Of a stretch of DNA of 64,000 bases, positions 26,978 through 44,081 are shown piece after piece. Under the pieces are notes generated by a model. The model ran no database searches, was not told the DNA's origin, and saw nothing but the letters and a program-made list of their open reading frames with translations. A program made the translations under genes and the position numbers. Numbering within the stretch: the stretch's first letter is position 1; each line of letters starts with the position of its first letter. The stretch is from a virus (taxonomy: Duplodnaviria; Caudoviricetes): the IMG/VR virus record IMGVR_UViG_3300021959_007005, one strand, 5' to 3'.

Positions 26978-27214
26978 ATGATTCACTCAATGTTAGAAAT
27001 CGAAATCCGTGACGCAATTGAAAAAGAAGAGAACCTTAATGAAGATGGTTCTATTAATTGGAGCTTCGTGGATGCAGATGCATACGCAGAATGTCGTTCT
27101 TTCTGGAAAGATGATGAACAGTTTTATGAATCATTTGATGAAATTGTGTCAGCTATTATTGCAAATGAAGAAGAAGAAGTTGCTGTTGATACACAAATTG
27201 AAATGGCATTTTAA
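26978..27214 (+). CDS. Hypothetical acidic early protein
   Basis: TTGACA promoter at about 26914 and AAGGA RBS. Confidence 0.6.
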   Translation: MIHSMLEIEIRDAIEKEENLNEDGSINWSFVDADAYAECRSFWKDDEQFYESFDEIVSAIIANEEEEVAVDTQIEMAF

Positions 27215-28078
27215 ATGGGTAAACTATGGATCTTTGGTGATAGTTTCACAAACGCACCATTAGAAAAAAGAATGTTAGTAAATGACTTGGTGTTTACAGA
27301 AGAAAGTAAAAAAGACTTTTCAATGACTTGGCAATCTTTATTATGTCAAAAACTTGGATTGTCTGAAATCTGTAATCACGGTATGCCAGGGATAGGATTA
27401 GATTATATTCAATGGAGATATGTTCAAGAAAGAACCGATATTGATAAAGAAAATGACGTTATTATAATTGGACACACAATGCCTGCTCGTAGATGGTTTA
27501 TACAAAAATCGCCAGAGCTTAGTAACTTTATTAATTTTATCAAAACAGATAGCACACTAAACATAGAATATCTTAAAAAAATGACATTACGTCATGATCA
27601 TGAAACAAGACAAAAGTCTCTTTATCAAGCAGAAGCGGCTAGGCAATATGTTATTAATATAGCTGATCCAGTAATGGAGGAATTGTACGGAGTATCTGTA
27701 TTAGCGTATTTTAATATGCAACAGCATGAGGGGTATCAAATAATTAATATCCCAATTTATGAAAATAGTGAAGTAACTAAATGGAATAATAATTTTAATT
27801 CAATTGGAAATTTAAATTCAGTTAGTGCTAATGAATGGCAATCAGAAAAAAGAGATGAACAAAGTCTTTGGACAGCATTTATGGATATTTGCGGTGGAGC
27901 TGACGGCAGGGTTAACCATCTAATAATGGATAACCATACTATACTAGCTGATAAATTATTTAAAACCATAACAGAAAATGAAACTTTAGACTTGACAACA
28001 GGGTTTATTTCTAATATAGTTAATGCAACAAGTTACGACAGTAAATATGATGTTTATAAAATGAAACAGGTCCCTTAG
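27215..28078 (+). CDS. SGNH/GDSL hydrolase-like protein
   Basis: IFGDSF block I, NHGMPGIG block II, NHL..NH near the C-terminus; stop codon lies inside tRNA-Arg. Confidence 0.6.
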   Translation: MGKLWIFGDSFTNAPLEKRMLVNDLVFTEESKKDFSMTWQSLLCQKLGLSEICNHGMPGIGLDYIQWRYVQERTDIDKENDVIIIGHTMPARRWFIQKSPELSNFINFIKTDSTLNIEYLKKMTLRHDHETRQKSLYQAEAARQYVINIADPVMEELYGVSVLAYFNMQQHEGYQIINIPIYENSEVTKWNNNFNSIGNLNSVSANEWQSEKRDEQSLWTAFMDICGGADGRVNHLIMDNHTILADKLFKTITENETLDLTTGFISNIVNATSYDSKYDVYKMKQVP

Positions 28079-28145
28079 CTCAGCTGGATAGAGCAAGTGC
28101 CTTCTAAGCACTAGGTCAGAGGTTCGAATCCTCTAGGGTCCGCCA
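28069..28145 (+). tRNA. tRNA-Arg(UCU)
   Basis: Cloverleaf; anticodon arm AGTGC-CTTCTAA-GCACT; GGTTCGAATCC; encoded CCA; U3:U70 mismatch. Confidence 0.93.
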
Positions 28146-28153
28146 GAATATGT

Positions 28154-28230
28154 ACTCCTCTAGCTCAATTGGTTAGAGCAGAACGCTCATAACGTTTTGG
28201 TTACAGGTTCGAGTCCTGTGGGGAGTACCA
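28154..28230 (+). tRNA. tRNA with CAU anticodon (Ile2-lysidine type or elongator Met)
   Basis: ACTCCTC/GGGGAGT acceptor stem, CTCATAA loop, encoded CCA; paired 1-72 so not initiator. Confidence 0.9.
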
Positions 28231-28235
28231 ATTAT

Positions 28236-28309
28236 AAGGGTGTGGTGAAATGGTATCACGCTGGTCTCCAAAACCAGAAGCAGGAGTTCGATTCTCCTCA
28301 CCTTTGCCA
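28236..28309 (+). tRNA. tRNA-Trp(CCA)
   Basis: CTGGT-CTCCAAA-ACCAG arm, G73, encoded CCA. Confidence 0.93.
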
Positions 28310-28318
28310 AAGTTTATG

Positions 28319-28490
28319 GTGCAGAGAACACCGCAGGAATAAACTGATAAGAGTAAACTGCAACGTTCTTTGTACAGTAGGAAAATCGTCGGAAGACTAG
28401 ATAGTTAAAATCTATGCATAGTCATATCTAGCTTCGACAGGCGTTGGAAATTAATAGGAGTAATTACCTAGTGACCTTCCTGAATCCTAC
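28319..28490 (+). ncRNA. Candidate structured RNA of unknown class inside the tRNA array
   Basis: Stems 28319-29/28365-75, 28377-82/28485-90, 28397-403/28425-31 and TAGG/CCTA; no convincing ORF. Confidence 0.5.
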
Positions 28491-28499
28491 AAGTGTTAA

Positions 28500-28589
28500 G
28501 GTGAGGTGGCTGAGTGGCCGAAAGCGCCGGATTACTAATCCGGAGAACGTGCAAGCGTTCCGTGGGTTCGAATCCCACCCTCACTGCCA
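28500..28589 (+). tRNA. tRNA-Ser(ACU), type II with long variable arm
   Basis: CCGGA-TTACTAA-TCCGG anticodon arm, GAACG/CGTTC variable arm, G73, encoded CCA. Confidence 0.92.
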
Positions 28590-28592
28590 GAT

Positions 28593-28676
28593 GCTCGCAT
28601 GATGGAATGGTAGACATAACAGACTTAAAATCTGTGGCCGTAAGGCGTCCCGGTTCGAGTCCGGGTGCGAGTACCA
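28593..28676 (+). tRNA. tRNA-Leu(UAA)
   Basis: ACAGA-CTTAAAA-TCTGT arm, long variable arm, A73, encoded CCA. Confidence 0.95.
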
Positions 28677-28701
28677 AATTAAACCACGGATAAGTATTTT
28701 T

Positions 28702-28776
28702 ATGAAAACTTGTCCAGATTGTAAAACAGAATTAGGTCATAACGATTTTTGTCCTAATTGCAGAGTAAAACGATAA
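28702..28776 (+). CDS. 24-aa zinc-ribbon microprotein
   Basis: MKTCPDCKTELGHNDFCPNCRVKR; TAAGTA promoter-like motif just upstream. Confidence 0.55.
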   Translation: MKTCPDCKTELGHNDFCPNCRVKR

Positions 28777-28777
28777 C

Positions 28778-28853
28778 GCCGCAATAGCTCAGTTGGTAGA
28801 GCAACTGATTTGTAATCAGTAGGTCCCGAGTTCGAATCTTGGTTGCGGCACCA
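28778..28853 (+). tRNA. tRNA-Thr(UGU)
   Basis: GCCGCAA/TTGCGGC acceptor stem, ACTGA-TTTGTAA-TCAGT arm, encoded CCA. Confidence 0.95.
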
Positions 28854-28873: not shown

Positions 28874-29305
28874 ATGTATAGAGTAACAGCATGGTTTAAA
28901 GATCGTAAAGTGTCAGAAGAGTTTCATGATGTGAACGATGCAATTGAATATCGTGATGATGTCGATGCACATTATCCATTAAAAGTAACTTTTAGAAAGG
29001 TAATATCAATGAGAGAATGGGTATATAATTGTTGGAACGTAGTAATGGATCATAACTTGAATCCACTGAGTAACATTCCAGACTTTAGCACACGACATAT
29101 GATCATGCAGGTACTTGCATGGATGTGGTGTATTGTGTTTGCTATTATAGTAGGTAGTATGTGGGCAGGAGTGTTCAGCATGATTCTACACGTACTATTG
29201 CTAGGAGCTATTGCAATTACAGTAGCAACATTTGAAACAGCCAAACGTAAACCAAATATGTTTGGCGCATATAATGGCCGCGGTTTAGGCGGCGAACACG
29301 AATAA
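28874..29305 (+). CDS. Hypothetical membrane protein
   Basis: Two hydrophobic helices in the C-terminal half. Confidence 0.6.
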   Translation: MYRVTAWFKDRKVSEEFHDVNDAIEYRDDVDAHYPLKVTFRKVISMREWVYNCWNVVMDHNLNPLSNIPDFSTRHMIMQVLAWMWCIVFAIIVGSMWAGVFSMILHVLLLGAIAITVATFETAKRKPNMFGAYNGRGLGGEHE

Positions 29306-29439
29306 TGTATTATGTAATGAATCTTAAAACTGGAAGTATCATAGATACCTATGATAGTTTGTTAGAAGCAAATGAACTTGTTAACAAACACCCAGAATGG
29401 ACAATTATGATAAAATATAATGAAAGGAATGTAAAATGA
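29305..29439 (+). CDS. Small hypothetical protein, 44 aa
   Basis: Read manually; TAATG coupling upstream and ATGA coupling downstream. Confidence 0.5.
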   Translation: MYYVMNLKTGSIIDTYDSLLEANELVNKHPEWTIMIKYNERNVK

Positions 29440-29642
29440 GTATGAGTGCTCAATTAGTTAAAGCCGCACGTATGCACGCCGAAGGTGAGCTAGAACGTGC
29501 CAAAACAAACATCATGGTGTATATGCATCAGGCTGTTGGTATTGGTGAACATAGTGATATTGTTGAGGCTATTCAAGAAGAACTTGATAAAATGGCCGCG
29601 GCAACTGATCGTATTGAAATGTTAAATGTACATTTTAGCTAA
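29436..29642 (+). CDS. Conserved T4-like marine phage protein
   Basis: HAEG..N..VY....GIGEHSDIVEAIQEEL motif. Confidence 0.7.
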   Translation: MSMSAQLVKAARMHAEGELERAKTNIMVYMHQAVGIGEHSDIVEAIQEELDKMAAATDRIEMLNVHFS

Positions 29643-30281: not shown

Positions 30282-30530
30282 ATGTCTTATAATGAATTTA
30301 AAAATAAAGAAAATAATAAAACTGCATCTATTAGCATAATGGATGATGAAGTATTAATGCTAGTTTGTTATGAAAATAATGAATATATTGGAACTATACA
30401 TTATCCTAATAATAGTTTTCATTATGTAAAGGATGCAGCTAACAATTATATTAACGGTATTTTAACTAATGAAGTAGTAAGAAAACATTCAGTTGAATAT
30501 GCCAATCAAATAAGGAAAGTAAATGATTAA
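30282..30530 (+). CDS. Hypothetical protein
   Basis: ORF track; AGGA RBS. Confidence 0.55.
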   Translation: MSYNEFKNKENNKTASISIMDDEVLMLVCYENNEYIGTIHYPNNSFHYVKDAANNYINGILTNEVVRKHSVEYANQIRKVND

Positions 30531-43471: not shown

Positions 43472-43873
43472 ATGAGATTGATCAGCAACACTGAACTAGA
43501 TTTACTTAATAATGATCCAGTAAGACCTCATATTAATAAAATAGACATAGGTAAACAAGTATATGTATTAGATGACTTGACAGCCGTAATATGTATATGC
43601 TACTGTACGGGCATACCAACTAATGAGTTAGAGTTGGAAGAATATCGTGACGATACTGGAACGGTTGCAGTAGCATATACCGTATGGAGTAGTAAAAAAG
43701 GTGCAGGTAGAACCATCGTTAATAATTTATTGGGTATAGTAAAGGAAAAACATGTAAAAAAATTGGTTACATTAAGCCCATTAACAGATATGGCGGAACA
43801 TTTTCATATTAGTAATGGTGCAAAGTTAATTGGCAAAAGTGATACTTGCCAAAACTTTGAATACGCAGTTTAG
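43472..43873 (+). CDS. GNAT-like hypothetical protein
   Basis: YTVWSSKKGAGR acetyl-CoA-loop-like motif, TLSP..A..FH..NGA. Confidence 0.5.
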   Translation: MRLISNTELDLLNNDPVRPHINKIDIGKQVYVLDDLTAVICICYCTGIPTNELELEEYRDDTGTVAVAYTVWSSKKGAGRTIVNNLLGIVKEKHVKKLVTLSPLTDMAEHFHISNGAKLIGKSDTCQNFEYAV

Positions 43874-44043
43874 TGTTGAAGCAAAGGTGCAGTGTACCTT
43901 ATCTTTTATATATGTGGTCCTGAACTATTAACCTGTAGTAGGCCAATTTAAGCGTTGGTGAATTAATCTTATCGTTAACGGATCCTATGTTCTAATACCA
44001 GTTTCTGCAATTGCCATAAGTGCTAATCACCAATGCCTCAACT
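43872..44043 (-). ncRNA. Candidate late-expressed structured ncRNA, about 170 nt
   Basis: Minus-strand TAAATA at 44054-44049; terminal stem GTTGAGGCA/TGCTTCAAC; further stems TTGGTGA/TCACCAA, CTTAT/ATAAG, ATTGGCCT/AGGTTAAT and AAGGT/ACCTT; G-U pairs favour the minus strand; no ORF. Confidence 0.65.
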
Positions 44044-44081
44044 AAACTTATTTAACTTAACTTTAACTAAATAGTGTTACA

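Follow-up and report, generated by a model that had tools for sequence, protein, structure and literature searches.

Within the tRNA array of an uncultured marine phage, a 190-nt spacer (28310-28499) reaches from the end of tRNA-Trp to the start of tRNA-Ser(ACU). The explanation that we regard as best, held tentatively and at a little under an even chance, is that this spacer represents a non-coding, lineage-specific cassette, which is transcribed and then excised by tRNA processing and which is a positional analogue of the species 1/2 RNAs of T4. Two tRNA modules, Arg-Met-Trp and Ser-Leu-micro-ORF-Thr, meet at the spacer. Its coding capacity is nil, with 3-7 stop codons in each of the three frames of the + strand, and its GC content of 37.9% compares with a genome mean of 36.6% and with 28-35% in the other non-coding gaps of the window, i.e. 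the whole 64-kb stretch of DNA that was analysed. The transcription, excision and stability of the spacer RNA are what we infer, and the designation "structured RNA gene" is a hypothesis.

The tRNA array and the predicted fold of its spacer

The source phage is an uncultured marine myovirus of the T4 superfamily (a giant phage), the window encoding a UvsX-like recombinase, a gp32-like SSB, a tail sheath protein and a large terminase; the nearest cultured phages by the large terminase are the PA5oct-like jumbo phages, at 57% identity only. Coding density in the window is high: across its 64 kb, only about 10 gaps without an ORF reach 150 nt. Six co-oriented tRNA genes, on which ARAGORN and Rfam are concordant, lie on the + strand (Table 1), and the CCA end is encoded in all six. 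Their order, with the gaps given in nucleotides, is Arg-8-Met-5-Trp-190-Ser-3-Leu-101-Thr. The gap between tRNA-Trp and tRNA-Ser, which the initial annotation had singled out as unusually long, is indeed so by both programs, the other gaps measuring 8, 5, 3 and 101 nt.

As judged from its match to the consensus, the putative sigma-70-like site upstream of tRNA-Arg is likely to drive the tRNA operon. The scan for terminators revealed no terminator-like site either in the spacer or downstream of the array, and an intrinsic terminator was rejected as the identity of the spacer itself, no GC-rich hairpin followed by a U tract being present in 28310-28499. Support for an excised spacer comes from the co-oriented array, the promoter-like site upstream and the lack of a predicted terminator within or after the spacer.

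The 3' end of a 287-aa ORF overlaps tRNA-Arg by 10 nt, and the sigma-70-like promoter is situated within the last 90 nt of this ORF (27992-28078). The product belongs to no Pfam or PHROG family and has two close clusters only among 5.8 billion proteins; one further relative, 27% identical, has no tRNA array beside its gene. Meanwhile, the 143-aa protein encoded downstream of the array has more than 590 relatives, and the arrays differ at the best 80 of these loci. The tRNA-Ser(ACT) gene is common in related marine phages, being present in about 20 of the fetched loci, with at least 8 distinct sequences among the first 83 loci.

The spacer is predicted to fold into two domains, which stand one base apart and are flanked by single-stranded tails; the two ends of the spacer do not pair with each other in the predicted fold. 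In domain 1, a 3x3 internal loop separates an 11-bp stem from a 4-bp stem, which is capped by a 21-nt loop. The 11-bp stem with G-U pairs, the inner GCAG/CUGC stem and the closing GUAGGA/UCCUAC stem, all of which had been drawn by eye in the initial annotation, are recovered with pair probabilities of at least 0.96. The interior of domain 2 is ambiguous: in the minimum free energy (MFE) structure it forms a long rod with interruptions, whose pairs have probabilities of about 0.7. The branched interior proposed earlier, made up of a bulged GUCG..CGAC hairpin and a UAGG/CCUA hairpin, does exist as a suboptimal fold, yet it is not the MFE structure and lies 2 kcal/mol higher (-48.0 as compared to -50.0 kcal/mol for the whole spacer).

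Table 1. Features of the tRNA array and of the spacer (positions are those of the window; p, pair probability).
Feature	Position	Strand	Basis or remark
Sigma-70-like promoter, TTGACA-17-TATAGT, 11/12	27992-28020	+	consensus scan; putative
Upstream tRNA module (Arg-Met-Trp)	28069-28309	+	ARAGORN/Rfam
tRNA-Arg(TCT)	28069-28145	+	ARAGORN/Rfam; CCA encoded
tRNA-Met(CAT)	28154-28230	+	ARAGORN/Rfam; CCA encoded
tRNA-Trp(CCA)	28236-28309	+	ARAGORN/Rfam; CCA encoded
5' tail, 9 nt, A/U-rich, single-stranded	28310-28318	+	unpaired in MFE and ensemble
Domain 1, 57-nt hairpin	28319-28375	+	pair probabilities >=0.98
Domain 1, 11-bp stem, two G-U pairs	28319-28329/28365-28375	+	p>=0.96
Domain 1, inner GCAG/CUGC stem	28333-28336/28358-28361	+	p>=0.96
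Domain 2, 114 nt, closed by 6-bp stem GUAGGA/UCCUAC	28377-28490	+	closing stem p>=0.96
Domain 2, closing stem	28377-28382/28485-28490	+	p>=0.96
3' tail, 9 nt, single-stranded, 5' leader of tRNA-Ser	28491-28499	+	fold and tRNA call
Downstream module (Ser-Leu-micro-ORF-Thr)	28500-28853	+	
tRNA-Ser(ACT; anticodon ACU)	28500-28589	+	ARAGORN/Rfam
tRNA-Leu(TAA)	28593-28676	+	ARAGORN/Rfam
24-aa CxxC..CxxC micro-ORF	28702-28776	+	lies in the 101-nt Leu-Thr gap
tRNA-Thr(TGT)	28778-28853	+	ARAGORN/Rfam

Several smaller features of the sequence were considered and set aside. A 16-nt direct repeat (28341-56/28448-63) is common to the loops of both domains, and the 9-mer GAATCCTAC is common to the spacer and the T-arms of the tRNA-Ser genes of relatives; both are expected by chance, by estimate. 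The likeness of the spacer to tRNA-Met (28191-28206) amounts to 12 of 16 positions only and rests on the palindromic AACGTT. A simple H-type pseudoknot of 28311-28317 with 28339-28345 is sterically implausible, since a linker of only 1 nt would be left to cross about 15 bp of stacked helix.

The precursor offers a further observation. The 3' strand of tRNA-Trp (28296-28304) is a perfect 9-nt complement of 28498-28506, that is, of the last two bases of the spacer and the first seven of tRNA-Ser; the MFE structure of the precursor that comprises tRNA-Trp, the spacer and tRNA-Ser contains the corresponding helix, which encloses the entire spacer and displaces both acceptor stems. About one repeat of this type is expected by chance in the region, by estimate.

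Strength of the fold and comparison with known RNA families

The whole spacer folds at -50.0 kcal/mol and does so better than shuffled sequence (z=-3.58 on the + strand; z=-2.15 on the - strand), contrary to a refuting condition named in the initial annotation. Domain 1 reaches -19.4 kcal/mol (z -4.97) on the + strand and -13.4 kcal/mol (z -2.55) on the - strand, the opposite strand being 6 kcal/mol weaker because of the G-U pairs in the + stem. Domain 2 exhibits no strand asymmetry (z -2.09 on the + strand and -2.01 on the - strand), and 8 of 200 shuffles fold at least as well. Against the background of the genome, with MFE regressed on GC, the spacer falls in the top 2.5%: 25 of 998 windows of 190 nt, most of them coding, fold as well. 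Likewise, at about 16 other sites in the 64 kb, or roughly one per 4 kb, the stability of domain 1 is matched by a 57-nt window. As evidence for an RNA gene, the predicted folding of the spacer is therefore suggestive and not decisive, the robust features of the model being the domain 1 hairpin and the 6-bp closing stem of domain 2. One must bear in mind that in this genome a folding prediction alone, without relatives, cannot tell an RNA gene from a spacer.

The equal folding of domain 2 on both strands is what would be expected of a DNA palindrome and, together with the position at a cassette junction, would agree with a DNA-level element, such as a site of recombination or protein binding or a miniature inverted repeat. 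The dependence of domain 1 on G-U pairs, however, means that it works as + strand RNA only. Moreover, the spacer is a single copy, with no other found by the covariance model in the window or in related loci, and it contains no promoter or terminator match, so that a DNA-level element seems very improbable. A repeat or miniature inverted-repeat element was also rejected on copy number, one copy being present per genome and none in relatives.

No Rfam 15 family matched the spacer at the gathering threshold, nor was there any match within it at E<=10, both when it was searched as part of a 1.1-kb stretch and alone, on both strands. This blank covers 6S, SRP, RNase P, Y RNA/YrlA, riboswitches and small ribozymes, and the impression gained by eye, that the spacer resembles neither tmRNA nor RNase P, SRP or a riboswitch, is upheld at E<=10. 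A tRNA, tRNA-like or tmRNA identity was rejected as well, as there is no match to the tRNA clan of Rfam at E<=10 and ARAGORN (bacterial mode, introns allowed, 80% threshold) reports none.

The least probable of the explanations, and one hardly to be expected, is a self-cleaving ribozyme (HDV-like/theta or of an unknown class) that generates the 3' terminus of tRNA-Trp. HDV-like ribozymes fold into a nested double pseudoknot in which the P3 hairpin immediately precedes the 3' strand of P1; their catalytic C lies in J4/2, and their junction has the pattern C-N-R-A. Theta ribozymes are about one third of the size of the spacer. The spacer begins with 7-8 nt (28311-28317) that could pair with 28339-28345 and are in this respect superficially P1-like. 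On inspection, however, no 3-bp P3 hairpin is possible directly 5' of the 3' strand of this candidate P1, no U(C/U)(C/U) partner for 28336-28338 is found in 28310-28375, and the junction reads CAAC and not C-N-R-A, the HDV-like pattern. The hammerhead-like CUGAUAA of the spacer has an A where the hammerhead ribozyme needs an essential G, and no match of the spacer to HDV, hammerhead, twister, pistol or hatchet was obtained at E<=10. HDV-like theta ribozymes adjoin phage tRNAs directly on the 3' side (Kienbeck et al. 2024, PMC10879173), which is also where the spacer lies. However, the nucleotide that follows the tRNA (28310) is an A and not the G1 of the theta cleavage site (PMC10879173), and tRNA-Trp encodes its CCA, as do only 4.5% of theta-associated tRNAs (PMC10879173). 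Theta ribozymes come from phages of gut Bacteroidota and Bacillota, whereas the spacer belongs to a marine phage.

The same genome encodes a Y-shaped late RNA (43872-44054), which is similar to the spacer in length and GC content and is also without an Rfam family. Paralogy of the two was rejected: their pairwise local alignment is not significant (49 of 500 shuffles score as well). The blocks that are invariant in an alignment of 8 members of the late-RNA family (e.g. GGATCCTA, TGCCATAAGT) are missing from the spacer, and the three short motifs common to both RNAs are not conserved within that family.

Distribution of the spacer and variability of related arrays

Four more assemblies contain the identical 190 nt (two IMG/VR contigs, JGI 3300060372 and the GenBank metagenome contig JACKZZ010006905.1; 100% identity), and all sampled 31-mers of the spacer are present in sequencing runs of at least 13 marine studies dating from 2014-2025. 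For the most part, the region around the spacer is itself about 100% identical among the genomes that carry it, although diverged patches form a mosaic on both sides. Since the surrounding sequence is as good as identical, the invariance of the spacer says nothing about selection, and since every copy found is 100% identical, covariation is not assessable.

Diverged homologues were sought by several routes. Sensitive blastn detected none in 50,697 GenBank phage records, while blastn and tblastx against 83, 204 and then about 350 fetched loci returned identical copies only. A single-sequence covariance model of the spacer was run against the window, 77 loci with the downstream 143-aa gene, the T4 tRNA region, 100 loci with a similar tRNA-Ser 5' end and the pattern matches; it recovered the single copy in the window, none in related loci and no diverged copy in the approximately 190 related or tRNA-Ser-anchored loci. 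Three pattern scans across IMG/VR (domain 1; the twin loop motif; the domain 2 rod with R/Y wobble) led to the same two contigs only, and the pattern GCGTTGGNNAATTAAT was too unspecific, with chance matches only. No diverged copy was seen in a scan of one JGI metagenome, and among 185,579 prokaryote genomes, scanned with 20-mers, there were two matches, both due to chance. On these searches, the spacer is confined to one near-clonal phage lineage and is widespread within it.

The initial annotation had looked to conservation and to covariation across homologous arrays. Conservation is essentially lacking, the spacer not having been found outside the one near-clonal lineage, and covariation gave nothing, all copies being 100% identical and no diverged relative having been found. 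Of the proposed structured RNA, what stands is that the spacer is non-coding, lies in a co-oriented operon, folds better than shuffles and has a domain 1 that prefers the sense strand; conservation and covariation lend it no support.

The tRNA arrays of relatives are hypervariable. Three relatives (L267, L283 and L235) possess tRNA-Ser(ACU) as well as the micro-ORF-tRNA-Thr pair, and the spacer is absent from all three. Long gaps in the arrays of relatives are occupied by small ORFs, and it appears that small genes move in and out of tRNA arrays. The hypervariability and the long, ORF-filled gaps would be consistent with the spacer being a decaying remnant or recombination scar (a former small ORF, a former tRNA or a cassette junction) in which the hairpins are incidental, as would its location exactly at the module junction in one lineage only and a fold that is unexceptional against the genome background. 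We nonetheless consider this unlikely. When about 2.5 Mb of related loci were compared by tblastx, relaxed blastn and tRNA models, no ORF or tRNA with residual similarity to the spacer came to light; the many stops in every frame imply a long decay, unusual in so compact a genome; and the sense-strand specificity of domain 1 and a GC content above that of the other non-coding gaps also speak against a scar.

The arrays of relatives provided some additional observations. Small ORFs, about 80 aa in length, lie in the long inter-tRNA gaps of four loci (L038, L047, L051 and L077). One family of array ORFs in relatives (MDYYNKF...) resembles, by eye, the 82-aa ORF of the window (30282-30530), and another (MGRVFIEEAM...) lies upstream of the micro-ORF. 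The micro-ORF itself (28702-28776) is of the zinc-ribbon type CxxC-N11-CxxC and gave only sub-threshold zinc-ribbon matches in Pfam; its homologues, 67-81% identical, directly precede tRNA-Thr(TGT) in L267, L283 and L235, and from this comparison the micro-ORF and tRNA-Thr(TGT) look like a conserved module. Relative to L002/L003, patches with 12-18% nucleotide divergence are located at 27200-27500 and 28900-29500, the array between them is identical, and a block of about 150 nt is fully replaced at 29300-29450. By nucleotide comparison, then, the array is flanked by a recombination mosaic.

In three studies with RNA libraries, assembled contigs extend over the spacer wholly or in part; they show zero differences, and their depth does not exceed that of the flanking DNA. 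One of them, 420 nt long and without differences, corresponds to 28202-28621 and bridges tRNA-Met/Trp, the spacer, tRNA-Ser and tRNA-Leu. The depth in the RNA libraries is about 5.8 for the spacer and about 10 for the upstream ORF, these being assembled contigs that carry no information on ends, strand or level. The contigs fit a precursor transcript and DNA carry-over equally well.

It might also be that the spacer is the gene of a stable, trans-acting ncRNA of a new family, a processed two-domain RNA whose large loops bind a protein of the phage or host or base-pair with a target; this, too, we hold to be rather doubtful. The fold, the closing stems, the GC content and the array context would speak for such a gene in the same way as for the excised cassette, and ORFan-like restriction to a lineage is common here, the 287-aa upstream gene being an example. 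On the other hand, the searches made gave no homologue and no covariation, the loops have only the chance-expected 16-nt repeat in common, no target or partner is identifiable, and the RNA-library contigs bear no sign of accumulation. Similarly, there is a small probability that the spacer represents an orphan gene whose product, a stable RNA of two domains and about 180 nt, is excised from the tRNA precursor by the processing enzymes of the host and has its own role in infection, e.g. the sequestering of a host RNA-binding protein or nuclease. If true, this orphan RNA would be a new lineage-specific counterpart of the T4 species 1/2 RNAs.

Comparison with the T4 species 1/2 RNAs and the proposed processing route

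The species 1/2 RNAs of T4 (rnaC and rnaD; NC_000866 70908-71171) are, like the spacer, co-oriented and ORF-free and lie inside a phage tRNA cluster. They are small non-tRNA RNAs with an unexplained function and, again like the spacer, belong to no Rfam family; the blank in Rfam is therefore no argument against an RNA of the T4 type. A further likeness is that rnaC folds far better than its shuffles (z -4.6). The resemblance does not extend to homology, as the covariance model of the spacer had no match in the T4 tRNA region and no similarity to rnaC or rnaD in sequence or structure was found. The T4 rnaC has a T-arm-like GGGUUCGAAUCCC hairpin and a terminal acceptor-like stem, whereas the spacer has neither (there is no GGTTCGA-type T-arm). 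In addition, rnaC and rnaD are 139 and 119 nt long, as compared to the 190 nt of the spacer, and are situated at the end of the array, while the spacer occupies its middle.

Another ORF-free element, of about 155-180 nt, was observed beside tRNAs in relatives (L235:9209-9388, L053:2037-2190 and L012/L013:6213-6363). In L235 it measures 180 nt and directly follows tRNA-Ser(ACU); it shows 86-92% identity to its counterparts in three other loci, which stand for two additional contigs at the least. The element has 48% GC in a locus of 39% GC, a z of -2.75, a long closing stem, no Rfam match and, in three sequences, one compensatory pair only. It comes from the same phage group as the spacer, is similar in length, adjoins tRNAs as well (tRNA-Ser(ACU), tRNA-Gln or tRNA-Leu) and likewise lacks an Rfam match, but it is absent from the window, unrelated to the spacer in sequence, higher in GC, equipped with a long terminal stem and present on at least three distinct contigs, whereas no diverged copy of the spacer was found. 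Since this element is conserved in related arrays, non-tRNA inserts do occur in this phage group.

Under the preferred reading, that of a cassette excised by tRNA processing, the spacer would be transcribed together with the tRNAs from the sigma-70-like promoter. As expected from general tRNA biology, RNase P would cleave immediately 5' of tRNA-Ser (28499/28500), and the 3' maturation of tRNA-Trp, by endonucleolytic and exonucleolytic steps, would take place after the CCA that ends at 28309. The two cuts would release a free RNA of about 170-190 nt, consisting of the two adjacent hairpin domains and the 9-nt A/U-rich tails. For such an RNA, roles in cis and in trans are equally likely; in cis, it could for instance keep the two tRNA modules apart, or it could guide or hinder nucleases that act on the precursor.

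At present, the spacer mainly marks a junction at which cassettes of the tRNA array are exchanged. Phage tRNA operons are a recurring home of non-tRNA RNAs without assigned roles, and the species 1/2 RNAs of T4 have been unexplained for decades. If accumulation of the spacer RNA were shown, it would provide an example from marine uncultured phages made by the same processing route as the T4 species 1/2 RNAs.
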